A DNA stretch of 63,997 bases, counting the filler, from Reclinomonas americana ATCC 50394 (taxonomy: Eukaryota): NCBI GenBank assembly GCA_048213135.1. It is 7 parts of 5 records of this genome, joined end to end, with 100 filler letters (N's around TTAATTAATTAA, not from the genome) between each part and the next. Parts side by side here need not be neighbours in the genome. Positions count along the whole stretch, not along the records: positions 1 to 12,841 come from PS015060.1; positions 12,942 to 18,208 come from PS015060.1; positions 18,309 to 47,305 come from PS015061.1; positions 47,406 to 56,530 come from PS015062.1; positions 56,631 to 60,800 come from PS015062.1; positions 60,901 to 62,641 come from PS015064.1; 1 more part is not named here. One strand, 5' to 3'. The number at the start of each line of letters is the position of its first letter. Position 1 is the first letter of the stretch. The notes beneath the pieces were generated by a model. The model searched no databases, had not been told where the DNA came from, and worked only from the letters and a program-made list of their open reading frames with translations. Shown here piece after piece: positions 677 through 62,641 of this stretch. Position numbers and translations under genes: made by a program.

Positions 677-3600
677 ATGAAGAAGAAGAAGGTTGGAAAG
701 GAGCGCTTGGACAAGTTACGTGACTACTGAACGCAGCATGAGATAGCCACACAAGTTCTTTCTCTGCGTGTATTGTGTGCGATTTTTTGTGTGTGTGCCG
801 AGTCTGTGCATGTGAATGTGCACATGGCGGGCACACTCACTCTTGCTGCGCTCGCACAGGTTCTATCACTTGGCCAAGGAGCAAGGATATCGGTGAGCAT
901 AGCCTCCTGTCTGTGTGCGTGTGTGTGTGTGTCTCTCTCACTCTCTCTTTTGGTGGCATGCAGCTCGCGTGCTGCGTTCAAGCTGGTGCAGCTCAACAAG
1001 CGATTCGACGTGCTGAGCTCGGCTCGTGTCGTCGTCGATCTGTGTGCGGCGCCCGGAGGTGAACAGACACGCACTGACTCACAAGGGCACACGATTCTGC
1101 GCATATTTGACACTTTCTCTGAAGATCGCTCGCTTGCACACTCTTCTGCACACGAGTACGCATAGCTGGGCACGCCTACACTCTCTTCCACGCAGTCGCA
1201 CTCACTTTTGCACACTTTCGCACACTTTCCCCACACTTTCCGCATTTCCACACTGTTCTTCACAAACACAGACTTTCACGCCCTTCTGCACACTCTCTTG
1301 CACTCGTCTACACATAGCTGGGCACGCTTACACTCTCTTCCACGTAGTTGCACTCACTTTTGCACACTTTCGCACACCTTTTGCACTCATTTCCACAAAA
1401 TTTCCGCACTCTCTGAAGTCACTCGCCTGCACACTCTCCTGCATGCTGCTGTGCACTGGTCCACACACCTAGGGACACCTTTACACTCTTCCACACCTAC
1501 GCACTCACTTCCGCACACTTTTGCACACTTTTCCCACACTTTCCGCTCAGTCACACTGTTCTTCACAAACACGCACTTGCTCACTCTTCTGCACACTCTC
1601 TTGCACTCTTCTACGCATAGCTGGGCACGCCTACGCTCTCTTCCACATAGTTGCACTCACTTTTGCACACTTTCGCACACCTTGTGCACTCATTTCCACG
1701 CAATTTCCGCACTCTGAAGATCACTCACTTGCACACTCTTCTGTATGCTGCTGTGCACTGGTCCACACGCCTAGGGGCACCTTTACACTCTTTCACACCT
1801 ACGCACTCACCACTGCACACTTTCGTACTCTTTTCCCACACTTTTCCGCTCAGTCCACACTGTTCTTCACAAACACGCACTTGCTCACTCTTCTGCACAC
1901 TCTCTTGCACTCTTCTACGCATAGCTGGGCACGCTTACACTCTCTTCCACGCAGTTGCACTCACTTTTGCACACCTTTTGCACACCTTGTACTCATTTCC
2001 ACACACTTTTCCGCACTCTCTGAAGATCACTCGCTTGCACACTCTCCTGCATGCTGCTGTGCACTGGTCCACACACCTAGGGACATCTGTACTCTCTTCC
2101 ACACCTACGCACTCACCTCTGCACACTTTCGCACACTTTCTCCACACTTTCCGCTCAGTCCACGCTGTTCTTCACAGACGCGCACTTGCTCACTCTTCTG
2201 CGCCCCGCCACGCTTAGTAGGGCACGCATACAATCTCTTCCACGCATATGCACTCACTTCTGCACACTTTTGCGCATTTTTCCCCACACTTTCCGCTCAG
2301 TCCACACTGTTCTTCACAAACACGCACTTGCTCACTCTTCTGCACAACAGCTGCACTCACTTCTTCACACTTTTCCGCACATTTCCCGTGTTCTTCACAA
2401 ACGCAGACTTCCACGCACTGCAGTGTTCTTTTGCACACGCCAGGGCACACCTGCACTTCTTTGCATACTTTCCCGCTTATTTCCCCACAAACGCACACTT
2501 TCCACAATCGATTACAGTCCTTTCTCCTCTCCTCGTTCACTCCTTCTCTTCCTCTTGTTTCTGCTTCGTTTGCTGACTTGCCATTTGTGTTCCGTGCGCA
2601 GGATGGTTCGCATTACCCCGCTCTCGCCGATGCCTCCTCACTTCCCTCTAACCCACTCTCTCTCACGCGTAGGATGCAAGTGTGCTCCAAGTTCTGCCCG
2701 GTCTCCAGCAAGATTGTCGGCATTGATCTCGATCCGATCCGTCCAGTTGAGCAGCGCACTCTTCTCTCCTTTCTCCAATCTCTCTTGCTCATTCCATGCA
2801 ACAGGTCCGCAACTGCACGAGTCTTGTGGAGGACATCACGACGCAAAAGTGTCGCCAGGCGCTGAAGAAGGAGCTGAATGGGATGCCAGTGGATGTGTTG
2901 CGTAAGGGGGCCAGGAAAGCTTCTGGGTTCTGCCTTGAGTCTCTCCTCTTCAAACATATTTTGCAGTGACTGCCCGTCGGTATTGCCCGTACCTTCTCGC
3001 AAGCTCGTTGCTTGTGCCACCGAGCTATACTCTTGCATTCTCTGTGTCTCCACATTTATCGCTTTCGTCTCCCTTTCCGTTTTCCTGTCCCTCTCATCTC
3101 CTCCCCTTCAACTCACACACTCGCATGTCCTTTTCCCTTCCGCGTGCCCGTCTTCATGTGGTCTGTGTGGTTTCTCTGCAATGTCTTACTCACAATTCAC
3201 CACTCTCACGCGTGTGTTCGCACTTGCTCACGTTTATGTTGCATTTCTTGTTGCTCTTTCCTCAACCCCCTTCCTCTCCTCCAAGCGCTCGCGCGCACAG
3301 AGTTGAGCAACTCTGTGCGCTGTCTCTTTTCGTCCGTCTCTCCCTTTCGCGTGCACTGTCTTCATGTGTTTCGCTGCAGAATTTCTTTGCAACTCACCAC
3401 CCTCAGGCCTCCAAGCACTCGCACGCACAGAGGTGCTCAGTGCGCTGTCTCCCTTCGTCTGTCTCTCCCTTTCACATGCACTGCCTTTGTAGTCACTGCA
3501 TTGTCTGTTATTTGTTGCAATTCCCCACTCTCAGACGTGCGTTCGCACTTGCGCATGTTCATGTTGCGTTCTTGTCGCTCTTCCTCCCTCCCCTACATTC

Positions 3601-13662: not shown

Positions 13663-16600
13663 TTACTCATACAAAGTGCTAGTAAAGTCAGGCAAGATCG
13701 AACCACAGATACGCTCAAGCACCTCTACATCCTGCTGTTTGCGACGCACGTAAATCGACTTGCCGAATATTCGAATGGAGAGATTGGCTGTGACGACGGC
13801 ATCACGGGACATGCCGACAAGGTCGGCTTCTGTGCCAAGTCGCACTTCTTCCCCACGCGCAAGCGACCACACTCGCACTGTCCTGTCACGACTCCAGGTT
13901 ATAATGTGCAGCCCATCGGGAGCGACGGCGACAGACCTCACTCGTCCGAAGTGTCCCACCAGCCGTCGCAATTCTTCTCCGCTGGCCAGCGACCACACGC
14001 GCACTGACTCATCTGCACCCCCACTTACGATGTGCTGACCGTCGGGTGTAATGGCTACGGAGAAAACCTCTCCAGCGTGTCCCACCAGCCGGCGCAACTC
14101 CTCTCCGCTCGCCAGTGACCACACGCGGACGGTCTTATCGTCACTACCACTAACTATATGCTGGCCATCCCGAGTGATGACAACTGCCTTCACTGCTCCT
14201 GCATGTCCATCCATTCGTCGCTCTTGCTCTCCACTCAACAGCGACCACACTCGAACAGTTTCGTCAGCACTTCCACTCACAACGTACTGACCATCGGGAG
14301 TGACGGCAACACACCACACAGCATTACTATGCCCGTCCAACCGTAGCATTTCTTCTCCACTCACCAAATCCCATATTCGCACTGTCGTTTCCCAGCTCCC
14401 ACTCACAATTTGTTGATTATCCGGAGTGATGGCAACGCAGAGCACAGCGCGCGAGTGTCCTCCCAGTCGTCGTACGCCTTCCTTGTCCACCAGTGACCAC
14501 ACCCGCACCGTCTCGTCTCTGCCCCCGCTCACAACGTGTTGACTGTCAACACTGACGGCGATACACCGCACCCTTCTGGCGTGGCCTTCCAACCGTCGCG
14601 CCTCTTTACCGCTCGACAGGGACCACACACGCACTGAACCACTCGAATCTCCACTTACAATGTAGCGACCATCTGGAGTGAGCGCGACAGCGAGCACCGC
14701 ACCATCAAGCCCGTTCAACCGTCTCACTTCTTCTCCGCTCGCCTCAGACCACACACGCACTGTCCGATCAGCACCTCCACTTACAAAGTGCTGACCGTCG
14801 TACGTGACGGCAACAGAGTCAACCCCTTCCGTGTGTCCCTCAAATCGTCGCACTTCATCTCCAGTCATAAGCGACCACATACGCATGGACTTGTCAGCAC
14901 TCCCACTAACAATGTGACGACCATCGGGAGTGACGGCAACAGACCACACAACTTCGGTGTGCCCCTCCAACCGTCGCACCTCCTCGCCACACGCCAGTGA
15001 CCAAACACGCACCGTGCAGTCGTGGCTGCCACTCACCACATACTGACCATCGGAAGTGACAGCGACCGACCACACAGCCTTGGTGTGCCCAGTCAACTGC
15101 CGCACTTCCTCTCCACTCGCCAGTGACCACACACGCACAGTCATGTCGGAACTTCCACTAACAACGTGCTGACCATCAGGAGTGATGGCGACAGATTTCA
15201 CCTCCCCAACGTGTCCCTCCAACCGACGCACTTCTTCTCTATTCGCCAGTGTCCATACTCGTATCGTGCGATCATGGCTTCCACTCACAATGTGCTGGCC
15301 ATCGGGAGTGACGGCGACAGACCTCACATCATCAGTATGGCCAACCATCGGCTTCCTCGGCCACTTCACACCAGTCACATCCGCCCCTCTAAAATCCGCC
15401 TCCCTCGCATACGCCATGCACACATTCACCTCTCGCAGATCCGCTCCCCTCCACACCGTCCGGTGCATCACCGCATCCCTCAAATCCGCACCCCTCACTC
15501 GCACACCCGACAGATCTCGTCCACTGAACGACACTTGTGCCACACACAACACCGTCGCTGCATTCGCTGCGGCCGTCACCACTCTCTCTTCATCCACCTC
15601 CTTCGACAACTCAATCACCTCCCACAGTCTCGCTTGCAATCGAGGAGATCGTCGCACCACCTCGGCCATCTGATCCACCAACGATGGTCGATCATTCAGC
15701 AGGCGCACTGCCAGTACATGCTGCTGCACATCCTGCACCGTCAACGTCCTCTCCTCATCCCACGTCTCCCATGCGAACACATGCCGTGCCACACAGTGCT
15801 CCAGCAACGACAGATGCACGAATCCCCACTGCGTCGTCCCATACCGTCGTACAATCGGGCAGCACGCACGCACATGCTGGTTCCTGGAGCCGAGGAACCT
15901 ATCAAACGGTCCCTCTTCCATCCGTCGTCGATGGTCGAGTGGCGCACCGCCAAACTCAGAGATGTCTTCATCGAACGCTCGCTCCTCTGACATCGCTCGC
16001 ACGACATTCCTCTCATGCATCAACCGTGCCAGTCCCTCACAGAACGAGAGACACACCTCCGCACTCGGCAGACGTGTCGCACCGAGACGCGTCTGCCTCC
16101 CTTGCTCCCTCACAATCCACTGTCGAATGAATCGGTCAAACACATCACGCCGCGTCGGCCGCTCCATCACACCACTTGCCACCAACTGCGGCAACACACG
16201 AGCCACCACTGCCAACAGGAATGGATTCGACACCAGCACATCCAGTCCATGCACACTCTTCAGTGCACGAATGTACTCCTCCGCAGTCGGCCATCGCACT
16301 TCTTCGTCGTCGTCATTCTCACCATAATCCACGTGCACTTCAACCAGTCGCGCAAAGTACTCCTCAATTTGCTCCTTGTTGAATGGCGCAATGTGTCGCT
16401 CCATCGGCTGTTGCGTGCACAACTGTCCACATGCATCTACTGGTGCAAAGTAATGTCGATACTGCGTTACACCACCCAGCGCCGTCAGTGCGTAATCGCT
16501 GCGACAGGTGATTATCACCTTCAAGTCGCGACACACGTCCAACTGGTTCTTGACAAACAGGTTCACACCACGGTACAACTCGTCGTACCCGTCAAGCAAC

Positions 16601-18163
16601 AACACCAGTGGTTCCTCCTTCAACCGTCGCACATCCGCCTCACTGAATCCCAGTTCGAGTGACAGTCGCACCAGTGCCTCCTCCAGCAGTCGCTCATCGG
16701 CATTGCGCAGAGCACCGAGAGGCACACGCACAGGCACTCGCCGACTCTCTCTCGCGTGCCACTGTCGCCATGCTCGCTCAGCCAGCACCGACATGGTGGT
16801 AGTCTTGCCAGCTCCACTGTTGCCAAACAGCACCAACACGCGATGCGAGGTGTTGGTGTCGGAGAGGAAAGCATCCACCTCCGTCAGCAGATTCATCATC
16901 CTGTCTCTCGACGAGACGTCACGCTCACGGGAGCACAGAAGTGGCACATACATCTGCATATCCTTGCGCACACCCTCGTCATGCTGATAGAAGAAAAGCT
17001 CACGCACGGCCAGACGATGCAGTCGTTCTTCAAAGGTGCTCATACTGAAGTCGAGGTGACGCGCCTCACGAATGCGTGCCGCGAAACCGTCAAATGTATC
17101 ACCAGGTAGGTGCAGTCCGGAGAGGACGGAGAAGTAGGCACCAGCATCATCAAGATACTCGTGCACACTTGCCTCGGTCCACGCCTGCGACGCGTGCGCC
17201 AACTCATTGCGCACCACTCGCAGCTGATCCAGCGCCTTGCGTTCATCAACATCGTCAATCAGCAGCTGCTGCTGGCCAGATTCTTCAACAAAGACACCAT
17301 ACAGCAGGATGGAGGCGAGCGCCGTCGTGTCGAAACCGTCACACGGAGGGTCGGATGAGGGGTCGGTGTCAAATGCAGCGCGCCAGGCCAATACGTGTGG
17401 ATGCAGTTTTTCATACAATATGACGCGCCTCTTCGGTACCGGCATATGCCGATCACGCCACGCCTTCACTGCCGCCGCATCCATTCCAGCAGGTGCGAAA
17501 CTTGGCACCCATGCCCGCAAATCAAAGTCGGGATGATCACGACTGAACTGCGCCAGTGCGCGTTGACATCGCATACGCAGCGCATCGACTACCACCTCGA
17601 AGGCCACAGTAATGCGGTTCGAGTTAATCATGCTGCACAATGCAAACATAATCAGCACAGACTCACTCCAGGAGAAGAATGAACAAGAGAGGGATGAGGA
17701 TGACTAAGGCAAGCAAAACAAACCGAGTCACTCGCTCCGAGTTGCTGGGCGAGGACATGAGAGTGAGTTGCATGTTACAGAGATGAATCACACACACATA
17801 CCTTCCACTCTCACTTCCACTCGACTGCAGCGCCACGCCAAGTGTCAGACGGACGACGATATGAGTGGATGAGATGACGCCGAGTGCAGCAAGTGGCACG
17901 CCGGCAGCAAGATTGATGTCGTATGGCGCAGGTTTCTCCACCCCCACTATCTCCATCTCCCCATCGCCACTCTTCTCACGCAACAAGCGTGCGGCCTCAC
18001 GCAGCAAGTCCGCGAGACTGGACATGGCCGACATGCCCTCCACCACCACCGACAGCGATGAATCATGCGCCGCACTTACATGCACAGAGAACTACTTGTG
18101 TGCAATGGTCAGCACAGGAGGAGCCCACACAAGCACACGCGAATTCACACGCACCGTTGACAT
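13663..18163 (-). CDS. NLR-like STAND protein: ubiquitin-like + HEPN + NACHT + pentapeptide repeats + 12 WD40 repeats
   Basis: Exons are 18163-18155 (MST), 18091-17802 (UBL-like), 17744-17724 and a ~3.97-kb exon 17632-13663. Motifs: FDTTALASIL..LRVVRNELAH (Rx4H), Walker A GNSGAGKTT, Walker B LLLDGYDEL, VIITCR, NPFLL, FVHLSLLEH, AAANAATVL followed by GADL pentapeptides, then twelve 42-aa GH..VRVWSL repeats. Confidence 0.9.
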
Positions 18164-18352: not shown

Positions 18353-19456
18353 ATGATCCCCTCCCGCCTCCTCCACCAACACACCGACTGGGTCACCTCG
18401 GTGGCCCTCACCGGCGACGGTCGACACCTCGTCAGCGGAAGCGACGACTCGACAGTGCGAGTGTGGTCCCTCGCCAGCGGCCAGCCAGTGCACCAACTGT
18501 GCGGAGGACACACGCATCCTCGTCGTCGTCGTCGTGTGTTTGCGGTGGTGGTGACCGTCGATGGAGAGCACATTGTGTCGTGTGGCAGCAGCAATGAGGT
18601 GATTGTGTGGTCACTGGCGACTGGCGAAGAAGTGCGACGACTGCAGGGCGGGTGTGCGGATGGCCACTTGTCGCTGGCGTTGACTCCCGACGGGCGGCAG
18701 CTGGTGGCGGGAGGCGTCGACGGCAGGGTGCGTGTGTGGTCACTCGCCAGTGCAGGAGGGGAGCTAGTGGTGGACATGGAGGGGCAGAAGAATACGCTGG
18801 TGCGGTGCTTGGCGGTCACGCCCGACAGCCGGCGCGTGGTGACGAGCTGGGAGAATGAAGTGGTCGCGGTGCTGTCGCTCACGAGCGGCGAGCAAGTGCA
18901 GATGCTGCGCCCGAGTGCGGGTGTCGTGCAGAGTGCGGTGGTGACGGTGGACGGAGAGCACGTGGTGACGGGTAGTCGCGACAGTGTGGTGCGCGTGTGG
19001 TCTCTCGCAACGGGTCGGGCAGTGAAGCGATACTTGGGGCACTGCGCGTCGGTGAGTGCGGTGGCGGTGACTCGCGATGGTCTCCTGGTGGTGTCGGGCG
19101 ACGATTTCGGCGATGTGCATGTGTGGTCGGTGGAGAGTGGAGACATTGTGCAGTGCCTGGAGGGTCACCGGCAGACGGTGACTGCGGTGGCGGTGTCGCC
19201 GTGCGGACAGCATGTGGTGGCGGGCGGGTACGACCGCACGGTGCGAGTGTGGTCGACGGTGCGCGGGCTGGCGGGGTGGGAGGTGGAGGTGGCGGAGGAG
19301 GTGGTGGAGATGGTGCGTGAGATGGAGGTGGAGGAGGAGGAGGAAGGGGAGGGTGATAGGAGGTGCTTGGTGGAGGTGGTGATGCGGTGTTTTGTGGTGG
19401 AGGAGGCGAGGGTGATTGCGTGGAGGTGGTGGGTGGGGGAGGGGGAGGGGAAGTGA
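18353..19456 (+). CDS. Intronless WD40 beta-propeller protein (about 7 repeats) related to the NLR sensor domain; possibly 5'-partial
   Basis: Repeats such as HTDWVTSVALTGDGRHLVSGSDDSTVRVWSLASG share the VRVWSLASG/EEVRRL signature. It has a Glu/Val-rich tail and starts 44 nt from a scaffold edge. Confidence 0.85.
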   Translation: MIPSRLLHQHTDWVTSVALTGDGRHLVSGSDDSTVRVWSLASGQPVHQLCGGHTHPRRRRRVFAVVVTVDGEHIVSCGSSNEVIVWSLATGEEVRRLQGGCADGHLSLALTPDGRQLVAGGVDGRVRVWSLASAGGELVVDMEGQKNTLVRCLAVTPDSRRVVTSWENEVVAVLSLTSGEQVQMLRPSAGVVQSAVVTVDGEHVVTGSRDSVVRVWSLATGRAVKRYLGHCASVSAVAVTRDGLLVVSGDDFGDVHVWSVESGDIVQCLEGHRQTVTAVAVSPCGQHVVAGGYDRTVRVWSTVRGLAGWEVEVAEEVVEMVREMEVEEEEEGEGDRRCLVEVVMRCFVVEEARVIAWRWWVGEGEGK

Positions 19457-22969: not shown

Positions 22970-23001
<32 letters not shown>

Positions 23002-37741: not shown

Positions 37742-45406
<7,665 letters not shown>

Positions 45407-45602: not shown

Positions 45603-46414
45603 TCACATCTCGTCCTCGGGGAGAGGATAGTCTGCTGCTGCTGCCATTGAGGCCTCCGGCGCCGCTGTAACACCACCACTGCTCACAACAAACGCCTCGC
45701 CGACGGCAACAGCCGCGTGATCACCCTTGCCAATGCGCTGGTACTGCGCCGCCGTGATTGCTCGCAGCGGAGCCATCTCGACGTGGTCGCCCTCGTCCGT
45801 CGTCACCGACGACGAAGAGCACACGCTGTGTCGATCGTCCTCTGCCGCCGTAGCCGATGCCGCTGCCGCCAGGCGCATCAGCAGGCTGCTGGCGTCCTCG
45901 TCCCCGCTCGCCCCGCTGCTGCTGTCGTCGACAACGTCGCGGCGGAACACCCGCACATCCGCTGGCGACGTGACGTTCACCAGGCGGATGAGCTTCGTCG
46001 GATCCTCGGCGCCAAACACGAAGCGCTGCAGTCTGTGCTCAGGGCAAAGTCAGTCTTTTGTGTCCTTCTTGTCAACCCTCGCAAGTTGTCTTGTCACTCA
46101 CCCATCCTTCTCATCCATCACTGCCAGGAACAGCTGGCAACCCGTGAGGCTTGACAGCTCCGACAGCTTCTTAATGCACCTGGGTGGGCAGGAGGGTGTG
46201 TGAGCAACATCTTCTTCTTTTGTCAACACACAGAGTCCAAAAATAGCTGACTCACCCCTCCCGCCGCTTGCGGAACGTCGTACTGTGACAGAGAAAGAGA
46301 GGGCGCGATGGTGAGAAGATTGGAGAGAGTGCCTCTCTCACTGCTTGTGAGTGTGACTCACCGACGCCGCTTGCGGTCGGGGATGTATGCAATCTCAATC
46401 GCCTTGCGACCCAT
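45603..46414 (-). CDS. Divergent MADS-box transcription factor (4 exons)
   Basis: The spliced N-terminus is MGRKAIEIAYIPDRKRRRTTFRKRREGCIKKLSELSSLTGCQLFLAVMDEKDGLQRFVFG. It has three G|GTGAGT introns. Confidence 0.85.
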
Positions 46415-47013: not shown

Positions 47014-47305
47014 TTACTGCCGTGCAGAGATGACGCGAACACAGGCAGCCACGTGTGCCGCCCAAATGACATGATCATGTCGGGCGACAGACGCACAGCA
47101 CCTGCGCAGCAGGCGCTCCGTCTCATCCTCACTGCGTCGCTGGCTGACAGAATGCTTGTGCACCAAATCGGCCAGACCATTGGCCGTCAGTTTCGACACA
47201 ATGCCACCAGTGCCAAAGACCAACGGTACGAACACGACTCGCTTGCCAGTACGCTCCTGAACGGCTTGAGCAAGGCGTAGGTACTTTCCAGCCTTCTCAT
47301 CGTGA
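47014..47305 (-). mobile_element. 3' fragment of a non-LTR retrotransposon ORF with restriction-like endonuclease tail (R2/R4/NeSL-type)
   Basis: An open frame from the scaffold edge reads HDEKAGKYLRLAQAVQERTGKRVVFVPLVFGTGGIVSKLTANGLADL..*. This matches the K-x-x-K-Y..V.P.V.G..G signature at the end of RLE elements. An AT-rich tract follows. Confidence 0.65.
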
Positions 47306-47435: not shown

Positions 47436-50400
47436 CATCTGCGGTCTCGTTTGGCCCAGTCGCACTGTTGGCGCAGACTGGCAGTCCAGTGGTGACCATC
47501 AGTGGCGTTGGGTTGCAACCGGCAACCAGCGTGCGTGCTGTGCGGCTCGAGCCATCTGCTGTTTGCAGTAGCGCCACTGCAGACGCTGTGGCCGGGACCG
47601 TGCTCTCTGTCAACTCGACGACCGCGTCGGCAGACTTCACCCAGCTGTTTGTGCCGGTCAACGCCACTGCGTTGCTTCCGAACACCTACAGCGTGTGCAT
47701 TGACTTCTCGGCAAATGCCGCCAGTGGCGCCTATGTCAGAGTGTCCGCCGGATCGCTTCTTGTCGGTGAGTCGCCGCTGTCGTTGCGGACACTGGCAAAA
47801 CATTGTGCTTACGAGCGTACACTTTCCCAAAGTGAGCGCCACTGCGTTCTCGCCCGCCTCGTTGCTGGCACAATCGGCCAATGCGACGGTGACTGTTGCT
47901 GGTTCTGGGCTTGATTTCCCGCAGAGCGTGCGAGCCATTCGCTTTGAACCTGGTGTGGCTTCGTGCACGAGGACGACCGCATCCGCTGCCGCCGGGACTG
48001 TGACCGTCACAGATGCATACGTCTCCAATGCAGACAACACGCAANNNNNNNNNNNNNNNNNNNNNNNNNNNNNNNNNNNNNNNNNNNNNNNNNNNNNNNN
48101 NNNNNNNNNNNNNNNNNNNNNNNNNNNNNNNNNNNNNNNNNNNNNNNNNNNNNNNNNNNNNNNNNNNNNNNNNNNNNNNNNNNNNNNNNNNNNNNNNNNN
48201 NNNNNNNNNNNNNNNNNNNNNNNNNNNNNNNNNNNNNNNNNNNNNNNNNNNNNNNNNNNNNNNNNNNNNNNNNNNNNNNNNNNNNNNNNNNNNNNNNNNN
48301 NNNNNNNNNNNNNNNNNNNNNNNNNNNNNNNNNNNNNNNNNNNNNNNNNNNNNNNNNNNNNNNNNNNNNNNNNNNNNNNNNNNNNNNNNNNNNNNNNNNN
48401 NNNNNNNNNNNNNNNNNNNNNNNNNNNNNNNNNNNNNNNNNNNNNNNNNNNNNNNNNNNNNNNNNNNNNNNNNNNNNNNNNCTGGTGGTCACCGTGGGTG
48501 GTTCCGGTTTGCCTCCCAACTTGTACCTGGTATGTCTGGACCTGGCCGCCGGCTCAGCGACCGGTGATTTTGTGCAAGTCGGCACCAATCCCATTCTTGT
48601 CGGTCAGTGCACGCTTTGTGTGGAAAAAGAAAGTCTCGCCGTCACTTTTGCCGCGCGCTAATCTGAAGACTACAGCTTCTCTTGGTGACTTTGCGCCAAA
48701 CACCGTGCTCGCTTCGCGTCCCACCGCGGCTCTCAACATTACTGGTGTTGCGCTGGAGTGGGCCGTCAGCGTGCGCGCCATTCGGTTCGAACCTGGTTCT
48801 GTGTGCACCTCGGCAACCGCTGGGGCCTCTCCTGGGACAGTAGATGCCAGCGGCACAGTATCTGCGGTTCCACCGGCTGCGCTGCGGACTACAATCCAGG
48901 CGACTGTCGGCGGTACTGGACTCCCCGCTGGTCTGTACAGCGTTTGTGTTGATTTCACGGCGAACCCTCCAAGTGGTGGCTTCCAGCGTGTCGGCTCGTC
49001 ACTGCTCTTTGTCGGTACGTGTTTTCAGAGATTCGTCTGCATCTCTTGTGTAACGTGCTGAACAGGCAATCTTTTTTGCGCTCTTGTTCTGGCCACAGGT
49101 GCTGTGACAGGCTTCTCTCCCGCCTCCCTTGTGCGTGCAGTGCCCACAGAGGTGATTACCATTAGTGGCTTGGCGTTGGATGCAGTGACAAGTGTTCGTG
49201 CCGTCCGCTTCGAGCCCGGGTCATCGTGTTCTCTGTCGACATCATCAGCGACAATGGGCACGGTGGCAGCTGATGGAGTTGCTGCGGCTGTGGCTGGCAC
49301 AAACTACACGGTTCTTACTGCGGTCATTGGTGGCACCGGCCTTCCTGCCGGTCTCTACGCCGTGTGTGTCGATTTCTCGGCTGGTGCCTCAACTGGCAAC
49401 TTTGTGCAAGCCGGCTCAACACAACTTCTCGTTGGTACGGCTGCAATGTCAATCTCTCTCTTTGCATGTGCACCTGTTGCATTTAGTTCCAACTCGTTCC
49501 CCCCCCCCCCTGTTTGTGTGTACTCGCCACAGCTTCTGTGTCTTCGTTTGCTCCAACAACCTTGCTAGCGAACGACGCCAACCAATTGCTGACCATAAGC
49601 GGTGTGGCACTCAGCGCTATCAGCATCCGCACAGTGCGTCTGCAGACGACGGCCTCGTGTACGAGTTTGGCAAGCGACGTACCTGCTGGAACTGTTGTGG
49701 CCACCGGGGCTCCAGTTTCGACCATGGATCTTAGCCAGTTTAGCCTCGCCGTTAATGGCACCGGCATATTGCCAGGCGTCTACGTAGTGTGCGTGGACTT
49801 TACGGCGAATTCCGCTGCTGGAGACTTTGTCCGTGTCGGTGTGCTCAACCTGTTTGTTGGTACGTCATGAGACCCTGTCTGTTGTGTCCTGCATCCTGTT
49901 TCACCGCCACTCACGTGGGATGATGATTGTGTGTGCAGCGGCGCTGAGCGACTTTGCTCCTCGCACTCTTGCTGCCCTGCGTCCAACAGAAGTTCTCACC
50001 GTGTCGGGCATTGGTCTGACGCCGGGCACGAGTATCAGAAGCGTGCGCTTTGAGCCGCGTGCCACATGCACTCCGGCTGTTGCCGATGCAGTGGCTGGCA
50101 CTGTCACTGCTGGCGGACCGCTGCAGGCCTCTGCCGACTTCCAGTCTCTGAGCGTGGCGATTAATGGCACGGGATTGGCAGCCGCTGAGTATTCCGTGTG
50201 TGTCGATTTGACGGCGAATGCGCCAAGCGGGAACTTCCGTCGTGTCGGCAGTGCTGCCTTGCTCGTAGGTTTGGACTGCGAAAATCTCTCGCCTACGTCG
50301 TAGTCTGACGTCCTCTCATGAAATACTACTATTCGCGCGTTGCAGCCGATTCCACTCAGTTCGCCCCGCTTACTCTGGGACGAAACGATGCCAACCAGAC

Positions 50401-51817
50401 TGTGACCATCTCAGGAATCGCCCTGTATCCAACTCAGAGTGTGCGAGCACTTCGACTGGAACCAGGAGCGAACTGCACCTCGACGACAAGTGGGGCCGCT
50501 GCCGGCACTGTGAATGTGGCAGGTGGGCTGGTTGGTGCCGATGACGGCACACGACTGGCTGGCCGCATCGGCGGTACTGGGCTTCCACCCCAAGTTTACT
50601 CGGTGTGCGTTGATTACATTTCGAGTCCGGTGCAAGGGCGCTTTGTTCAGGTCCCCGCTGCGTCAAGTCTCCTTGTCGGTACGGCGTTCACGCACACGCA
50701 CACATATTGACCGAATAATTGTTCCTCAACCCATGTGCGCAGCTTCCGTCGCTTCCTTTTCGCCTGCGACTGTCGTTACGCAACAGAGTCAGGAGATCAT
50801 TCAGATCACCGGCGTTGGGCTGGACAGCAACATCAGCTTGCGCAGCGTGCGATTTGAGCCGGGGTCCGTCTGCTCGCCGCTGCTTGACAGCGCTACGGTT
50901 GGCACCGTTGTTGCCACTGGCGGCAGCGTCAACGTCGGTACCAATCACACTGTTGTCCAAGTCACCGTCGGTGGCAGCGGACTGCAACCAGGCCAGTATA
51001 GTGTCTGCGTCGATCTTTCCTCCAACGCTGTGACGGGAAACTTTGAGAAAGTGGGCATGACCAATCTCCTCGTTGGTAGGTGCCGTTTGTGTTGTGGTGG
51101 TCATTGCTGTTTTTCTCATTTCGTGTGTGCAGTTCGAGTGAGTGCGTTTTCGCCCCTCTACGCCCTCCGTGACGATGCCAGTGCATCTTTTGTTGTGACT
51201 GGCTCGGCTTTGGACTTTGGTACGAGTGTGAGCGCTGTTCGCTTTGAACCTGGTGCAAGCTGCACATCAACTGCAGCGAACGCAACTGCCGGAACTGTCA
51301 CCGCCACCGGCCCGTTTGTCGCGATGCTGAACAACACGCGGCTAAACGTAACTGTCGGCGGCAGCGGACTCTCGCCTGGCCAATATAGTGTGTGCGTGGG
51401 TAACACGGCCACTGGAATGTTCGAGGCCGCCGGAGCTTCGCTGTTGTCTGTAGGTATGTATCCACCGTACTCGGTTGCCTTCTGGCACATGATCCCTTCT
51501 GCATTTGCTGATTTGCCTGTCATTCAAAAGGCGGAGTCACCTCGTTCTCCCCGACTAGCGTACTGGCAGGCGATGCGAATGCTCAGCTGACCGTCACTGG
51601 TGCTGGACTCGAACCGGCCACATCAGTGGCTCAAGTGCACTTGGTTGCCTTGGGCGCGTCGTGTACTCCTTCCGGAAATAACGTGGTCCAAATCACGACG
51701 GATCTGCTCGCAAGCGGCGGTGCCACCCGCTTATCAACTCGTGTTGGCGGTTCTGGCATACCAGCAGGAGTGTACACACTCTGCGTTGGTTTCACCTCGT
51801 CGCCTGTGCGCTACACC
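47436..51817 (+). CDS. Internal part of a large extracellular protein of tandem ~110-aa IPT/TIG-like Ig domains, one per exon
   Basis: Exons are 47436-47765, 47833-gap, gap-48602, 48676-49014, 49099-49434, 49533-49859, 49939-50268, 50346-50678, 50743-51075, 51133-51453 and 51531-gap. Each reads F[SA]P..TISG.GL..SVRAVRFEPG..C..GTV..GG[ST]GL.PG.YSVCVD..G.F..VG..L.V. Confidence 0.85.
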
Positions 51818-52185: not shown

Positions 52186-53038
52186 GCTGATCACACCGAA
52201 TGTGCTGACTGAGCCGCTCTGCAACGAACCCACCGTCGTCACACTACCGCCGCTGATCACACCGAATGTGCTGACCGAGCTGCCCTGCAACGAACCTACC
52301 GTCGTCACACTGCCGCCACTGATCACACCGAATGTGCTGACCGAGCCGCTCTGCAATGTGCCCACTGTGGTCACACTGCCGCCGCTGATGACGCCGAATG
52401 TGCTGACTGAGCCGCTCTGTAATGAGCCCACCGTCGTCACACTGCCGCCGCTGATCACACCGAAAGTGCTGACTGAGCCACTCTCAAGTGTACCCACCGT
52501 CGTCACACTGCCGCCGCTAACCACACCGAATGTGCTAACTGAGCCGCTCTGCAGTGTGCCCACAGTCGTCACACTGCCACCGCTGATCACACCGAATGTG
52601 CTGACTGAGCTGCCCTGCAACGAACCCACCGTCGTCACACTGCCGCCGCTAACCACACCGAATGTGCTGACTGAGCCACTCTGCAACGAACCCACCGTCG
52701 TCACACTGCCGCCGCTAACCACACCAAATGTGCTAACTGAGCTGCTCTGCAGTGTGCCCACTGTCGTCACACTGCCGCCGCTAACCACACCAAATGTGCT
52801 AACTGAGCTGCTCTGCAGTGTGCCCACTGTCGTCACACTGCCGCCGCTGATCACACCGAATGTGCTGACCGAGCCACTCTGCAGTGTGCCCACCGTCGTC
52901 ACACTGCCACCGCTGATCACACCGAATGTGCTGACTGAGCTGCCCTGCAACGAACCCACCGTCGTCACACTGCCGCCGCTAACCACACCGAATGTGCTGA
53001 CTGAGCTGCTCTGCAGCGTGCCCACCGTCGTCACACTA
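52186..53038 (-). repeat. Coding 66-nt (22-aa) tandem array SVTTVG[TS]LQS[GS]SVSTFGV[IV]SGG, about 13 units visible
   Basis: The cacaccgaatgtgct motif recurs every 66 nt. Much of the variation falls at minus-frame third positions. Gaps bound the array on both sides. Confidence 0.9.
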
Positions 53039-56000
53039 NNNNNNNNNNNNNNNNNNNNNNNNNNNNNNNNNNNNNNNNNNNNNNNNNNNNNNNNNNNNNN
53101 NNNNNNNNNNNNTAGCGTAGTTGTCGACGTGTGTCCAAGCACAACGGTGCCCGACGACAAACTCAATACCGAGACGCCAGCGACAGAAGCGCTGACACTG
53201 GTCGTGCCGACGATTTGCACTTGCGGACCAGACAGCTGCAGGCTTGTTCCCGATCCCGTGCCGCCAAGCAGCACAGCAACATCGCCCAGTGTGGCATCGC
53301 GCCGCCGGAGAGCGATTTGCTGTCCAACAGTATCCACAAAGAGCTGGCTGAACTGCGTCGCCGAAGTCTTAGCGGTGACTGAAACAGTGGAAGTCGATTG
53401 GATACTGGCATCCACGGCTAACAGCGTCAACAGCGTCACACCGGCGGTGCCATCAGCAGATACGGATAAGCTGTTGGTCGCCAGCAACTGCACGTCGCGA
53501 ACAGAAGACTGCAGTGACCATTGTCCAGCGCTGAGGGCCACCGCAAATGCCGCAGAATTGTCAGGTTTAAGCACAGAGAACGACTGTACGTGATACACAA
53601 AACAGGTGGAAGTGTGAGGCACACTTCACGCAAAACATATACACATTGGCAAACGTACCGAGCCGGCGGTGGAGACCGCATTCGTCGACGACCCAAGGAC
53701 GACACTCGGGGCCGTCAGGGTAACCGACGTGCTGCCGGTGACCGCAACTGCACCGGCCAACAAGCCAACCTATAGCACGACAGCCAATTCACGATTGAGA
53801 AAGATTGTGAAAAGATATAGATTCCACGATTGCCACGCACCTGCGGAGTGGCGTTGCCCACTGCACCGATGAAAACATTGCCATTCACACCAATACCATT
53901 TCCGCGACCACCTTGAATCCGAATAGACCCGCCGTTAGTGTCGACGGTCGCTCGGTTGCTTCGACTGAGCACAAATTCGTCGTTGGCGTCAGGTCCCAGA
54001 ATGAGTGTGCTCCCACTCGACAACAGCACGCGTGATGCGGATGTCAAGACCAGATTGCCCGAGATCTGTACGCGTGCATATGCAAGGTTAGCACGTCGCC
54101 AGAACAACAAGTCAGTAGACGCTCACGAGGCACGCAGGACCTGCGTGGTTGCCGACGAAATTGTGGTCGTTGAAGTGGAGGTGCCGATGTTGACGGCAAG
54201 TGCGTTTGTGACGCCAACTTGCACCGCTCCGGCAGTGCCAGCTCCTTTACCGGCGTCGAGATACCTAAGATGCAGAGGCATCTGAGTGCATGAATAAATT
54301 CGGAACACGGGAAGGAATTCGATCACGCAACAGCGAGCCGGCTTGGAAGCTTGCATCCGCATCTTGACCTGTAATGTACATGGCGCCGGCCGTGGCCATT
54401 GTGCGACGCGGCCGCGTGATAGTATAATCACCAGTGTCACTTGCCGTGCCAAACAGGAGCAGGCCTGTTGACGGTATCAACACGAGGTCAGCCGCCGTGG
54501 TACGGATGATGCTTGGCACGATCAGATCACTTGTCAGCGTCAGGGATGAATTGATCGTGAGCTGCAGAAGGCGAGGAAAGTCAGGAGCTATACACACATG
54601 CATACACACACAACACAAATGCGCACCGCTCCATAAATCGTTACTGGAGTTGAGGCACTTCCAATGTCCACACGGCCGGTCGAGACATTGGTGCCGACTT
54701 TGACGGCGGTGGAAGCGTCGAGCAAAACATTGACAGCTTGAGTAGACACCGCAGCCGTGGCTGCCGAGCCAAGCACAACATTTCCCGAGACCGCATTCGT
54801 TCCCGTGCCTGCGGAGGCCGCAAGCCGAATGCTGCCACCCAGAGCATTGGCACCGGAAGAGGCAGGTCGTGTGATCACATACTCGAGACCGTCCGCAGGT
54901 CCAACAAAGATGCTGGAAGCAAATGGGAGCAGTGCTGCTGTGGCAGTGGAGAACTGAAGAGAGCTTGACACCTGCGGCGGCGGCAGACATGTCATCAAAC
55001 TCGACGACGAAGAAAAACTGGCTTGCGCACAAGAGGCATTTTGTGACGACGTACCGCAGCAGAACCCACGGTCAGCGGACTCACAACATTGACTCCACTC
55101 GTTGAAGCTGAGCCCAGTACAACGGCACCGTGCGCGGTGGTTCCCGAGCCACCACTCAGCACTCTGCACAAGTCCACCAAGCGTCAATGACAGCGATAGA
55201 TAACCATTGATGCTTTAGCAAACGCAACAGGTCTCCGCCAGTTCCGGCGGCGATCGACTGGCCAGCAATTGTTGTGGTCGTAGCGACCATTCCCGCGCCG
55301 CTATAGGTTGGGCGGCCAAGCGTGAAGGCTGCGGTGCCGTTGCCGAGATCGACTCTGGAGGTGACCGAATCCAGCTGCAAGTTGCCGGGGGAGCCCATCA
55401 GCCCTCCGATTTGCAACACGCCGGTGACCGACACCTGCGTGAGTTGATAAGGCAGCAAGAACACACAAGCAGCGCAAGCAGCCCGCTTACCGTGCCGAGT
55501 AGCGTCAAGGTGCCTCCCATGCGACCGAGAGTGGTCGACGTGGCCGTGGCACCCATCGTGAGGGTACCAGAAGAGTCCACAGAAGTCGACGTCTGCGACC
55601 GCAGAATCAACTGCGACCAGAGGATGGGTGAGTTAGTGTCACAAGAAACTCCCGCGGCGAAGGCGAAGCACAGTACCTGCGCCGTATCCGTGGAACTGCC
55701 GATGAAAATCCGTCCATTGGTGGCGGTTCCCTTGCCCGCCAGGATCACCGTGTCGGCACCAACTACGCCAGCCGCCACCGCATTGGGGCGGCGAATGGTA
55801 AACGTCGTCTGCGAGAGATCACCAAGCACCAGTTCGGAAGTCGCCGATATGATGCCGTTGTCAAAGTTGCAAGACACGGCACAGGAGATGGCCGCGCCGG
55901 CAACCGTCGCCGTACCCTGAATAAGGAGATTGCCCTTGACAGTGAGATTGCTGCCGGTGCGGCCGATAGAGGTTTCGCCGTGAATCTCTGTGGTGCCAGC

Positions 56001-56530
56001 GTCGTTGCCCACAATCGTCTGCAGCACGGGGTCAATAATTATCAGAAGCGTTCCACAGAAGAAGCACGACAGCCTGCCGAACCTTGGATGCATTCGCCGC
56101 ACCGAGACTCGCCACACCAGCAATACTCATTCCGGCACCAGCGTCAATGATACTAACAAAGAGCCGCCGCAACAGTGAAAAATGAGTAATCGTCGACACA
56201 AGGCCTGCTGCGGCGATTGGGAACGCAACATGTTGCCGCCAGTGGAATCCAGACTGCGCTGGCCAAGGATGGAGATGTCGACGGCAGCTGAGCCATCTGC
56301 GCGGTCACCCTTGGTGACGGTGAACGGCGCGGTGCGGGAGCCCAGGTAGAGAGTCGATGAAGCTGAATCAAGCGACAGGGTACTGCTGCTGCTAATCACA
56401 CTTCCGCCCACGGACAGCTGGCCAGAAACCTGGAGAGGCGAGTAAATACACCAGTGTCCCCGTGATAAACGAGGACCCACGCACCGTGACGGCTTGCCCA
56501 CCGCCTGGAGCAATGACGATTGGTTCGGCG
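52186..56530 (-). CDS. Internal part of a large Gly/Ser/Thr/Val-rich fibre-like beta-repeat protein (multi-exon)
   Basis: Spliced modules such as F/Y.I.RP....TI.GQ...GG[DNS][LI].L.AG.G...G.V.[LI]G repeat about six times and lead into a 22-aa tandem array. Introns are GT-AG and the frame is continuous. Confidence 0.75.
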
Positions 56531-56845: not shown

Positions 56846-56906
56846 CTTCCCTCCCTCCGCTCTCTCCCTCCCTCCCTTCTCTCTCCCCCACACATCATCG
56901 ACTTAC

Positions 56907-57568: not shown

Positions 57569-59457
57569 TCACTTGTTGCTGCTGGTACCTGACGGAGTCG
57601 GCGAGCTGCCAATGTTATTCTGTCCGGCGAGAATGGCGGCCATGAAGGCCTCCATCTTGCTGGCCTCTTTCGCCTGGTACTCGGTGAGCTGTTGCGTGAA
57701 AGAAAAGGAGAGAAAGAGAGAGAGGAGGGGGGGTGGTGGGGATCACACAGAATCGGGCGTGCGATCGCCAACAGACGGGTGACCCGTGGGTGAGTGATGT
57801 GGCGGGGAGCAGGGCGTGAGCAGGGGGAAAAGGAGCACTGACCTTGGTGTGTGCCTTTTCGGCCTTTTTCGCGCGGGCACACTGAATTTGGAACACACTA
57901 CGGAGCGGGTGGGTGGGTGGCGAAGCGTGGGAGAGGCGAGAAGCAAGGGACTTACCGACGACCCACATACGTCTCCATGTCGTGTGCGGCGGCAATCTCT
58001 GCACGCTGCTGCTTGGTTTTCTCGCGCGAGGAGACGGAGGGTGAGCCGGAGCTGCGCCAGGAGGGAAGAGAAGCAAAGCGAGGGTGTGAGAGAGAAGGAC
58101 AGGAGGGGAAGGACGGCAGCTGACATGAAGATGAGCACAGCGAGGGAGACAACATCGAAAGAAAGCGAGGTATGAGCTCACACGAAGAGCTATCTAAACA
58201 AGGGGAGGCAGCAGTGTGCCAACTGAGGTGAGGCGAGTGGCGTGAAACGGAGAATGAGTCTCCTGGGTCGCGAACGTGACAACAGAGTCAGACGAGATAT
58301 GTGGGCATTGCAGCTCCAGAGTGACTTCATGCGAGAAGCAGCAAGGAAGAGCAGTAAGCGCGACACAGAAGACACAAGAGTGAGCAATGCAGCTTCAGAG
58401 CGAGAGACGCAAAGAAGGACCGCAGCATGTGATACAGCGTGCCGAGAGCGACACAGAACAAGATGAGACGAGAAACGAGGGCACTGCAGACCAAGAAAGC
58501 GACTTGTGAGAGAAGCAACGAAGAGCAGCAATACAACTGTGATACAGTGCGCTGACTGCAGCACAGACGAGTCACGAGAGTGGACACTGCAAGAACAGCA
58601 AGGAAGGCCTGCAGCATGTGACACAGCTTGCAGAGGGCGACACAGAACAAGCTGCCCCAGCTCCGACGAGAGTAGAAGAACTGCGGGCCACGCAAATCTG
58701 CTTGCGAGAGAAGCAAGGAAGAACAGGAGAATGCAGTGCACATGTTAGTGTGCAGCACAGACGAGACAAGCACTGCGAGAACAGCACGGAAGGCCAGCAG
58801 AACGCATGCTGACAAGGACAAGACGTGCTACGAGCCACGAGATTGAGCGACTGTAGAATGTGACGCAGACGAGACAGGATTGTAAACACTGCAGTTCCTG
58901 AGTGGAGCGATGCAGCCTGTTGACTGCAAATCCAAAGTGGCTTCCCTGGAGAGATCCCAACAAGAGACACAAGTCGCACAAACTCAACTCATCAGCCATC
59001 GACGGACCAAAGCCTGCACCACCAACCAAATCAGTCACACCTCCCAGCCAATCACTCACTCACAAGCACACGCAACTCTCCTCTCTCGCTCCTCCACTCC
59101 CCCCCTCCGCAGCCTCCTTCTTCCTCCGCAACCGCTTCTCTCGCTTCTTCCGCTCCTTCTCTTTCTTCTCCTTCTTCTCCTTCCTGCGACGCCGACGCCG
59201 ACGTTCCTCGTCCTCCCTTCGCTTCTCCTTTTCGCGCCGGCGACGTCGCCGGTCGGCGTCCTCTGAGGCAGAGGAAGAAGAGGAGGACGATGAAGGCGAG
59301 CGGTGGCGACGACGATGTCGACCTTTGTGTGTCAAAGAGTGAGAGTGAGTGATTGTGCGTTGTTGAGTTGTGTTGCGTAACTGGACTCGTCGTCGGAGGC
59401 CGAGGAGGATGACGAGGAGGAGGAGGAGGGCGAGGCAGAGCGACTCCTCTTGCCCAT
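57569..59457 (-). CDS. Ser/Arg/Lys/Glu-rich, probably nuclear protein of unknown function (about 6 exons)
   Basis: MGKRSRSASPSSS..RHRRRHRSPSS..KEKKEKKEKERKK..REKTKQQRAEIAAAH..VFQIQCARAKKAEKAHTKLTEYQAKEASKMEAFMAAILAG..NK*. The frame is consistent, but one donor is ambiguous. Confidence 0.6.
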
Positions 59458-60184: not shown

Positions 60185-60711
60185 TTAGTCGCACTCCTCG
60201 GTGATCTTGAACTTCGGGTGCTTCGGAATTGCCCCTGTGTGACAAAAAGTGAGCAAAAAACCCCTCTCCCTTTCCCTCCCTCCAAGTCACGCAACAGTGG
60301 CAAAACTCGTCAAACAGAATGACGCCACCACCGTCGGCGTCGATCTTGCGGAAGGTGCGCTCAGGGTCCTTGACCTCGAGGCCCCACTCCTGCAGCAGCG
60401 GCACGGCGGCGATGAACTCGCGCAGGCCAATGCGGCGATCGTTGCTGGTGTCGATCTTGAGGAAGAGCTGGTACAGCTCAAAGTACCGCTTCAGGTAGAT
60501 GAGCAGGTGGCGGAACTCGGCGCGCTGCACGTAGTCGTCGCCAGCCGCCGACTTGCCGTGGTACTTGGCCTTGGCGGCGTTAAAGGCGCGCATAATGACC
60601 GGCTTGCAGTCAAAGATCTCGTGCAGCTGCAGCACCTCCAGCAGGCCGCGGTCGACCTCGGCCAGGGAGAGCAGGCCGTTGCCGTTCGGGTCGAACGAGT
60701 CGAACATGATG
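60185..60711 (-). CDS. Flagellar calcium-binding protein (calflagin/FCaBP-like EF-hand), 3' part
   Basis: MFDSFDPNGNGLLSLAEVDRGL..KPVIMRAFNAAK..DDYVQRAEFRHLLIYLKRYFELYQLFLKIDTSNDRRI..FRKIDADGGGVILFDEFCH|WAI. The T|GTTGCG intron restores the conserved F..WA. Confidence 0.9.
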
Positions 60712-60900: not shown

Positions 60901-62641
60901 CCGGGAACGAATCGGGTGTCCAGTTCGCCCCTGTGTGGAGCTTGTGCGGTAAGTGTTTTTTTTTTATATATTTCCCCGATGTGTTTCAAATGCACAATCT
61001 GCGTCTCGTTCTCTCTCTCTTGCAATCGCAGCCTGGCTACTCGCACTGGCAAGGCGAGTGCGTGAATTGCCCGTATACTGTGGCGCGTGCCCGTCTCTCC
61101 ACCGTGTTGAAGATGTGGCTGGTGGTGCTTGTCACACTTGTGCTGTGTCAACGTGAATCCAGCGGTGGTTGCGTCTGATCGTGCCCCGCACGTTGCAACT
61201 GCATCATTGCCGCTTACCGTATGTTGTTGTTGCGTGATGCAGCGGGCGTGGAAATCATTATTTTCACGGCACAGACAGCGGCGCTCTTGTTCTACCCTGA
61301 TCTGACGCTGCTGACCCTCAGCCGACTCCTCTCGTTTATCACCCCACAATTCCTCAACGTCGATCCCGCGTGCCCGTTGATGTTGAATGCTCTTGGTGAC
61401 ACGTTGGTGCAAGTGATCTCTCCACTTGTGTGTCTCGGCTTGCTGTGGGGCACGTTTGGCTTGCATCTGGTGCTGGCGAAACTCGTCGGTCGCCGCGAAC
61501 CCAGCGAGGAGGCTGTTGGTGGTCAACAACAACGATGCTGTCTCAAGCTCCGCCAGCGCTGGTTAGCCATCGCACGATGGCTGCACAGGACGGCCGTCTC
61601 TAGTCGTTACGTGCGAGCGACCATGGTTATTCTGGTCGGTGCCTATGCCGGATTGGCGCAATTGTCGGTGTCATTTTTCACGTGCACGAAAGTTGGACAA
61701 GCGCACGTGGTACTATTTTCTCCAAGCATCGTGTGCTTTGAGGGAGAGTTGCGCGGCGTGAACAGAGCGTGAGTTTCTGTCTTCCGCAAATACAGCTGAA
61801 CGTGTGACGATTGTGACAGGTGGCGGACGCTAGCGCCTGCCTTTGGTGTGCTGTCGGCGCTCATTGTCCTGGCGCCAATTATGTTGGTCTTGTGGACGTT
61901 GCGGATGCGACGCAGAGACAAGCTTCAAAGCGTCAAGGTGAAGCTGCTCCATCTCCGTGCTCGTGAGTTGCAAGCGCTGATTCGCGATGCAGATGAGGAT
62001 GCGCTTTGGTGTGCTCTATCACCATTTCAGGCCTCAGTTCGTGTGGTATCAGGGTGAGTAGCGTGCTCGCGACAACGCAGCGTGTACGCGAACTCACAAA
62101 AAAGTGTCCAATTGCGCAGGGTACCAACTCACTCGGCGTCTCATACTGGTGGCCGTGATGTTCCCACTGGCGGCCCTCGGCAAGCTCACTGCTTTGCCGC
62201 TCGCACTGTGGCTAGTGTGTGCCTGCTTCCTGGTGGTCCACGTGAGTGTCCGGGCGTACAATCTGGATGCAGATAACAAGCTGGAGGTATGCAGGGAGAA
62301 GGTTGCAGTGTCGACAAGTATCGTTGTCTCACTACTCACTGCGTGCCTACAGACCATCAGCCTGTGCGGCCTCGTGAGCATTTCCACCATCTTTGCCTCG
62401 CAAGTCGCCGCACCGTACAAGATCACTTTTGGTCTCACGCTGCTGGGCATTCTCGGCATCCTCCTCTTGATCCCGTTCGTGACGCGGGCACTGCAAGGCG
62501 TCGTGGGCACGATTCGCGAACGATCGCGAGCCCGCAAGAAGCGGATGCTGTATCAAGTCAGTGTGAAGGCAGCAGAGTTCACCGCCGACCACGAAAGCAC
62601 AGGTGCAGTGGTATTGCCGTGGGAGGATGCTGCATTGCAGC
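60901..62641 (+). CDS. C-terminal part of a Cys-rich-ectodomain, multi-pass (about 7 TM) membrane protein
   Basis: The spliced product reads PLCGACAPGYSHWQGECVNC..FFTCTKV..SPSIVCFEGEW..RFGVLYHHFRPQFVWYQGYQLTRRLILV..VRAY..DNKLE, a pattern common in protist receptor-like 7TM proteins. Confidence 0.7.

Follow-up and report, generated by a model that had tools for sequence, protein, structure and literature searches.

Mammalian genomes reportedly hold rare 5′ splice sites (donors) that are read in a shifted register and carry the motif GUUAAGU, an observation attributed to Roca and Krainer. Here we describe a frequent class of displaced donors, beginning GTTnnG, in a 63,997-nucleotide stretch (filler included) of the genome of Reclinomonas americana ATCC 50394 (GCA_048213135.1). 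This stretch, called the window below, consists of seven sequence pieces joined with N-flanked spacers; it has about 54% GC and is intron-rich. Human 5′ splice sites read with a +1 shift have been described (Roca and Krainer 2009, as cited in PMC4856993 and PMC11162779), and all non-canonical registers together make up about 1.5% of human donors (PMC11162779). In animals and plants, donors fall into two major classes, AG//GUNNN and NN//GURAG (Parker, Fica, Simpson 2025, PMC11732430). A non-canonical register of the U6 small nuclear RNA (snRNA) has been reported for the STAT3 tandem donor, a single human site that is shifted upstream (+4) (PMC11162779). Retuned 5′ arms of U1 snRNA go with atypical donors in Entamoeba (donor GUUUGU, arm ACAAAC) and Mastigamoeba (GUGCGC, ACGUAC) (bioRxiv 10.1101/2022.06.08.495308). 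The literature searched, which included few subscription journals and no supplements with possible donor logos, gave no report of a genome-wide shifted donor class, and passages of PMC9311317, PMC10599564 and PMC8283771 add nothing on one.

Two donor classes divided by the last exon base

All splice junctions are predictions from the DNA sequence. The curated set comprises 16 gene models with 114 introns, each model in one frame without internal stops; long WD40 genes, uncertain first exons near 32.5–33.9 kb and three introns with just one end inside the window were excluded. As alternatives for each intron, all in-frame GTs up to 90 bases away and all AGs up to 36 bases away were listed. Because the curator knew the hypothesis, blind checks were added, among them a gene finder run without a donor matrix. 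The homologue aligner knows only GT/GC and AG and has no donor matrix; its profiles cover Spb1 (87 of 120 homologues), the kinase (22 segments, taken from 16 proteins) and the EF-hand gene (120 proteins). In the notation used here, a single slash marks the cut and H stands for A, C or T as the last exon base (position −1).

The window contains two donor classes that are offset by one base, and the last exon base tells them apart. After an exon with A, C or T at its end, GTTnnG follows in 32 of 33 cases, against 1 of 81 after an exon with G at its end (at 61168; Fisher p = 5e-26). An earlier reading made from the sequence alone (the sequence-only reading) had proposed such a split with a second, displaced class, and the proposal is supported: our own curation arrived at the same 32 introns, each preceded by A, C or T as claimed, and the supposed rough quarter is 32 of 114 (28%), spread over five of the seven joined pieces. 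The bases it quoted are present at all 34 positions (the 32 donors, 4485 and 41214), and the single unshifted donor after a non-G exon that it reported near 41214 is genuine, being fixed by homologues at 11.2 bits. Its restriction of the shifted motif to non-G exon ends overlooked the probable G/GTTGCG donor at 61168. The 32 shifted donors divide into 24 GTTGCG, four GTTGAG, two GTTACG and two GTTTCG. Donors of the G/GU type (G/GUGAG, G/GUGCG and looser forms; the G class) account for approximately 70% of introns.

The same association appears in the gene finder's own donors, although its accuracy without a matrix is only moderate (55 of 114 donors reproduced, including 16 of the 32 shifted ones): at 85 shared acceptors it chose a shifted donor for 19 of 44 non-G exon ends and for 1 of 41 ending in G (p = 5e-6). 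Within modelled genes, H/GTTGCGT is used at 19 of 21 occurrences, H/GTGCGT at 1 of 24 and H/GTRMG at 1 of 148, while after G, GTRAGT is used at 15 of 16 and GTGCGT at 10 of 11. Unshifted donors are essentially unusable without G at −1. The exon-independent donor of the usual register, N/GURAGU, is absent here and the GTT class stands in for it, because none of the 14 H/GTRAGT occurrences is used while H/GTTGCGT almost always is. Gene spans hold 21 H/GTTGCGT where 4.2 are expected. We give little weight to the strand asymmetry of H/GTTGCG (34 vs 5) because two permutations show a similar one (30:6 and 31:10). Phase 2 is over-represented in the shifted class (14 of 32 vs 14 or 15 of about 80), a phase in which the amino acid often forbids a G at the exon end.

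A different account would be that the donors are misplaced, with the true cuts at the inner GT (GTTGC/GT), at G/TT with a slid acceptor, or elsewhere. The placements derive from DNA, and 24 of the 32 sites are not fixed by homology; 22 shifted donors depend on frame continuity and on the absence of a better donor. Furthermore, when 61168 is added to the 32, 14 of 33 introns have bases in common on the two sides of the junction; a retained G with a slid acceptor is neutral at most of the sites tested, and at 6408 the score falls by just 0.8 bits if the inner GT is joined to a different acceptor. Against this, 19 of these 33 introns cannot slide, the modelled acceptor is out of frame with the inner GT, and a retained G would require non-AG acceptors in the shifted class alone; its cost is 3.1 bits at 4943, 1.9 at 37974 and 1.1 at 38095. 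Homologues pick seven of the shifted donors (715, 2746, 2897, 4943, 37974, 38095 and 60295); 4488 and 6408 are not fixed. None of the 33 introns after non-G exons has an in-frame G/GTnnG alternative, seven of the 32 shifted introns have no second in-frame GT compatible with the modelled acceptor, and of 251 in-frame decoy GTs just 8 fit H/GTTnnG. We regard misplacement as very improbable and are highly confident that the shifted class is real, with splicing predicted to occur at its GTT donors.

The shifted motif and the rest of the intron

When the classes are aligned after a one-base slide, both read as an invariant G, G or U, an invariant U, a purine-rich position, A or C, a near-invariant G, and U. 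The shifted class has G at +6 in 32 of 32 donors and at +5 in none; of the features of U2-type introns it lacks the +5G but has the GT...AG ends, branch point and acceptor. Position +5 is C in 28 and A in four, a preference opposite to that of standard U1. The G class had been described as using the same motifs minus one T; the one-base offset holds, but the G class is much looser, with GTTGCG in 24 of 32 shifted donors and GTGCG in 13 of 71 G-class donors with +5G (p = 7e-8). This greater tightness and the loss of the N/GURAGU class are new points beyond the sequence-only reading.

On the exon side, −1 of the shifted class (A 0.44, G 0.00) resembles −2 of the G class (A 0.42, G 0.09) in composition. 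At four-fold degenerate phase-0 exon ends, the −1 base of the shifted class is A in seven of seven (expected 0.19, p = 9e-6). G-class donors that lack +5G have an exon ending in AG in nine of nine cases, compared with 25 of 71 otherwise (p = 2e-4).

Every one of the 32 shifted introns starts with GT and ends in YAG or AAG. A CTVAC branch point was found in 19 of 32 shifted introns and 43 of 80 in the G class, and no acceptor column from −12 to −3 differs between them (lowest p 0.11). Across the 114 introns, neither intron length (51 to 1459 bases in the shifted class, like the G class) nor the downstream exon base nor the acceptor differs usefully between the classes. Since acceptors and branch points are shared, it is the major spliceosome that handles both. 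Minor (U12-type) introns, whose donors are of the RTATCCTT type, were considered and rejected; 0 of the 32 donors resemble that type.

Comparison with other Spb1 loci

Eighty metagenome loci encoding Spb1 (58–77% identity) were run through the same aligner for comparison. Of these loci, 31 yielded well-flanked introns, 63 in all and 56 distinct; among the 17 that follow non-G exons none is shifted and 14 have +5G. Neither a close relative nor a shifted-class locus was found among these 80. In a tree of 86 homologues of at least 600 amino acids (one aberrant row, P0012, omitted), the window protein sits on a long branch; the nearest named sequences, from Telonema, Gefionella and Cyanophora, have 59% identity or less.

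One locus of an unrelated eukaryote, L001, has an intron at the position and phase of the window's shifted intron at 2897 (profile position 113, phase 2), and its donor, C/GTTTGT, is unshifted. An origin of the shifted class by one-base sliding is not favoured because of this shared position and phase, in what is one case only. The same intron bears on the idea that the class is a family of introners, transposon-derived introns carrying their own GTTGCG start. The start is far more uniform than in the G class, as such a family would have it; the lengths nevertheless span the range of the G class, and the position of 2897 is shared with an unrelated eukaryote. An introner origin, which we consider scarcely credible, was rejected: intron bodies are alike only in microsatellites, their ends do not pair, and there is no excess of direct repeats.

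Recognition of the shifted donors

By the textbook rule, five bases separate the cut from the U6-pairing G. The two classes can be described by a single donor register, G-x-U-R-M-G-U, with its two Gs five bases apart. Where x is G, the cut would fall after the first G (G/GUGAG, G/GUGCG and looser forms); with U as x, no GU exists other than the one that begins at the first G, and the cut would fall before it (H/GUUGCGU). H/GUUGCGU would then be the exon-independent class of this genome in place of N/GURAGU. The best reading, to which we give an even chance, is that a U1 snRNA with a 5′ arm retuned to H/GUUGCGU, predicted as approximately AUACGCAAC or AUACGCAGC, makes the first contact with such donors. 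Its pairing would lie one base further downstream than usual, with +1G opposite C9, +6G opposite C4 and exon −1 opposite U10. The major spliceosome in its ordinary form would then cut at the GU, with the extra base taken up between +2 and the U6-pairing G; after U1 leaves, +6G most plausibly pairs with C42 of U6.

Pairing was calculated with the standard U1 arm (sequence from PMC4856993), a comparison of registers that the sequence-only reading had suggested. The +1 register averages 6.5 pairs vs 4.4 in the usual one and is the better at 28 of 32 sites. The duplex of the shifted class with this arm has a mean of only −1.6 kcal/mol, compared with −7.3 for the G class, and GTTAAG occurs at none of the 32 donors. 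Because standard U1 pairs this poorly with the GTT class, the motif is not accounted for by the shifted register known from humans, and the direct analogy to mammalian /GUUAAGU that had been drawn is not supported as it stands. When 64 arms varied at three positions were compared, those best for the shifted class were AUACGCAAC and AUACGCAGC (−10.0), which give −5.2 and −6.3 on the G class vs −7.3 for the standard arm.

The earlier suggestion of a shifted or bulged register is left undecided by pair counts, and the exon-side pattern alone favours the shift. A bulge needs exon pairing through a G at −1, which the shifted class lacks (1 of 33 shifted motifs follows G); this is why we prefer the shift. 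The A found in seven of seven freely variable −1 positions fits an A:U10 pair, where a bulge would want G.

Several points weigh against a retuned U1 in a shifted register. The best-arm search was fitted to the motif and is thus a fit, not the detection of an RNA; an Rfam scan of the window found no family and no U1 or U6 gene. Scans of the window for short U1- or U6-like motifs gave one isolated match, inside an intron. Pair counts favour the shift at 15 sites, the bulge at 13, and are equal at four. The A at −1 could equally come from pairing with U5 loop 1 or from G-to-A transitions. The need of unshifted donors for G at −1 does not follow from a second U1 alone, and the donor at 41214 is a well-fixed case of an unshifted donor after a non-G base. 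Among AG/GT donors lacking +5G, six of nine have +6G (5086, 10470, 54140, 55676, 57253 and 61938), compared with 6 of 71 others (p = 2e-4). These six may represent a bulged register inside the G class, and the enrichment suggests a general one-base slack with no need for a special U1. Elsewhere, Thecamonas and Micromonas have C at +4 with U1 unchanged (bioRxiv 10.1101/2022.06.08.495308), and tunicates with non-canonical donors retain the U1 5′ end (PMC13326754).

The +6G enrichment in the G class is also what would be expected if standard U1 only marks the region and the donor class is chosen when U5 and U6 dock. In that case +6G and +7U would pair with the ACAGA box of U6, leaving a single bulged U, with assistance from an altered U6, its m6A state or an SNRNP27K-type factor. 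The shifted class would then correspond to the U6-dependent one of the two classes already known, displaced by one base. The GTT class does replace NN//GURAG (H/GTRAGT used at 0 of 14), the class tied to U6 in PMC11732430, and a U6 register that is off by one base has been reported once, in the opposite direction (PMC11162779). Such docking leaves the invariant +3U and the strong +4G and +5C unexplained, as U6 does not pair at these positions in the standard model, and the cut is otherwise always five bases from the G:C42 pair (PMC11162779). We consider this account rather unlikely.

The combination of a tight motif with poor standard-U1 pairing would also suit a protein, such as a paralogue of U1-C, LUC7 or the TIA-1/Nam8 type, that recognises UUGCG and keeps a weak U1 duplex, shifted or bulged, in place while the snRNAs stay standard. 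Tunicates offer a precedent in that proteins and RNA modification were altered there and the U1 arm was not (PMC13326754). The motif, however, retains exactly the snRNA-pairing positions of the G class in displaced form, which suggests base pairing, and we judge a protein of this kind improbable. Returning to the retuned U1, a more specific version is a major spliceosome with two codes, in which a second U1, perhaps with its own proteins, is dedicated to H/GUUGCGU, the ordinary U1 reads only G/GU, and the core routinely accepts +6G. We put this forward tentatively.

Genes and individual introns

The Spb1 gene (plus strand) holds shifted introns that are fixed by homologues at 715–859 (intron 1, A/GTTACG, 38.9 bits above the next option), 2746–2804 (A/GTTGAG, 29.4 bits) and 2897–3818 (T/GTTGCG, 16.3 bits). 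The intron at 4943–5007 (T/GTTGCG, 8.7 bits) uses the sole in-frame GT for its acceptor. At 4488–4553 the donor is ambiguous between T/GTTGCG and A/GTTGTT at 4485, the latter scoring 2.5 bits higher. That at 6408–6464 (T/GTTGCG) is the sole in-frame GT for its acceptor and is not fixed by homologues; the margin is 0.8 bits and the aligner picked 6413. The gene also contains a 4-base microexon (2602–2605, plus strand), which is needed for the conserved GGWMQ motif and was picked by the homologue aligner; the intron position downstream of it is common to seven control loci.

A proline-rich gene has probable exons of 2, 9 and 12 bases at 10551–10552, 10636–10644 and 11430–11441 (plus strand), and its end presumably resembles a LITAF-type domain. 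The intron after the probable 2-base exon (10553–10635, plus strand, A/GTTGAG) is placed by frame with low confidence. In the proline/cysteine-rich gene on the same strand, frame places introns at 11864–11938 (A/GTTGCG), 11984–12050 (C/GTTGCG) and 12090–12154 (T/GTTGCG), each without a strong alternative. For the gene of flagellar calcium-binding type with EF-hands, the aligner picked the donor of 60235–60295 (minus strand, T/GTTGCG) using the 120 homologues; splicing there creates a Trp that is present in 113 of these 120. The protein's matches have 63% identity or less, and the presence of such a gene fits a flagellated protist.

An OST-alpha-like gene on the minus strand has four shifted introns placed by frame: 23160–23235 (intron 1, C/GTTTCG) and 21292–21353 (T/GTTGCG), both without a strong alternative, 21601–23059 (C/GTTGCG), preceded by an exon that matches PF03619, and 20805–20863 (T/GTTGCG), followed by an exon that matches PF03619 from residue 1. 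A homologue search with an OST-alpha exon gave no match among 95 candidates, and the four sites rest on frame. The last exon of a second OST-alpha-like gene lies at 12410–12530 (minus strand), where the gene is cut by the scaffold end. MADS-box genes are found at 24389–25531 and 45603–46414 (both minus strand), the first matching MEF2 proteins. The intron of the first at 25286–25359 (A/GTTGAG) uses the sole in-frame GT for its acceptor, and its splicing gives a gap-free alignment to the second. The gene for a transporter of the MFS family (plus strand) uses the sole in-frame GT for the acceptor at both 28802–28865 (T/GTTGCG) and 28931–28981 (A/GTTTCG); those at 29249–30023 (A/GTTGCG) and 30787–31341 (C/GTTGCG) follow from frame, without a strong alternative.

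The kinase gene at 37742–45372 (plus strand) has 21 introns and encodes a CaMK-like kinase domain, a helical middle and a SPRY domain. Its intron at 37974–38034 (A/GTTGCG) was the aligner's choice by a narrow margin of 3.5 bits, and that at 38095–39429 (A/GTTGCG), which runs across an N gap, has 9.9 bits. The exception T/GTGCGT (41214–41272) is the one placed by the kinase homologues. Frame gives 42451–42510 (A/GTTGCG) and 42805–42870 (C/GTTGCG), without strong alternatives, and 44314–44378 (C/GTTGCG) in the SPRY part, where the SPRY match agrees.

In a gene for a large repetitive protein (minus strand), introns at 54265–54331, 55164–55228 and 56153–56229 (all T/GTTGCG) were placed by frame, and splicing restores the same internal repeat motif each time. 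A low-complexity gene on that strand has introns at 58052–58988 (A/GTTGAG; frame only, at lower confidence), 59014–59076 (A/GTTGCG) and 59323–59381 (A/GTTACG), the latter two also by frame. The probable G/GTTGCG donor, the sole shifted motif after G, opens an intron at 61168–61242 (plus strand) placed by frame; an in-frame G/GTGGTT lies three bases upstream. The intron of a membrane protein gene at 61748–61819 (plus strand, A/GTTGCG) is placed by frame without a strong alternative.

Other regions of the window include an intronless frame of 1346 codons (13663–17703, minus strand) with many WD40 repeats and a P-loop NTPase-like part, which we take to be NACHT-like, and a second intronless WD40 gene at 18353–19456 (plus strand). 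A large gene at 47436–51817 (plus strand) encodes repeats of about 110 residues with one phase-1 intron per repeat, and all nine of its modelled introns follow G. A tandem 60-base coding repeat lies at 52186–53035 (minus strand) within a gene for a large Ser/Thr/Gly-rich protein, and the frame at 47100–47305 (minus strand) gives the impression of a non-LTR retroelement protein end.

Relation to known systems

How the cut site is fixed after U1 departs is a long-standing question. With +6G in a quarter of introns and the exon-independent donor gone, this genome would offer thousands of natural tests that separate the roles of U1, U5 and U6. Should a second U1 prove responsible, it would clearly exemplify how snRNAs can specialise within the major spliceosome, and if two codes are indeed read, about a quarter of introns would have a second intron-start code and form, in effect, a new intron class there. 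Standard gene finders will mis-splice this genome, and its annotation needs a two-class donor model.

The closest known cases resemble the window's shifted class in part. Like the human shifted-register donors, it has a GU donor with the consensus one base downstream and better +1 pairing with U1, and our results point to routine use of an intron-start reading mode that is rare in humans: 28% here compared with approximately 1.5% for all human non-canonical registers (PMC11162779). The human sites match the standard U1 arm and the window's do not, and only in the window is the class tied to the last exon base and N/GURAGU absent. The STAT3 donor is similar in that a G:C42 pair would lie at a non-standard distance from the cut, but the window has a whole class at +6 rather than one site shifted upstream. 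Entamoeba and Mastigamoeba likewise combine an atypical donor with a proposed retuned arm, in Mastigamoeba with a C opposite U1 position 5. They have a single genome-wide consensus in the usual register that keeps +5G (bioRxiv 10.1101/2022.06.08.495308, a source that uses neither the word register nor the word shift), whereas the shifted class is a minority (32 of 114), without +5G and displaced by one base, and its U1 arm is a prediction. As in the system of AG//GUNNN and NN//GURAG, one class is supported by the exon (with exon-side compensation in nine of nine donors) and the other by the intron; both of those classes keep the usual register, while the intron-supported class of the window is displaced by one base and the split between its two classes is nearly absolute.

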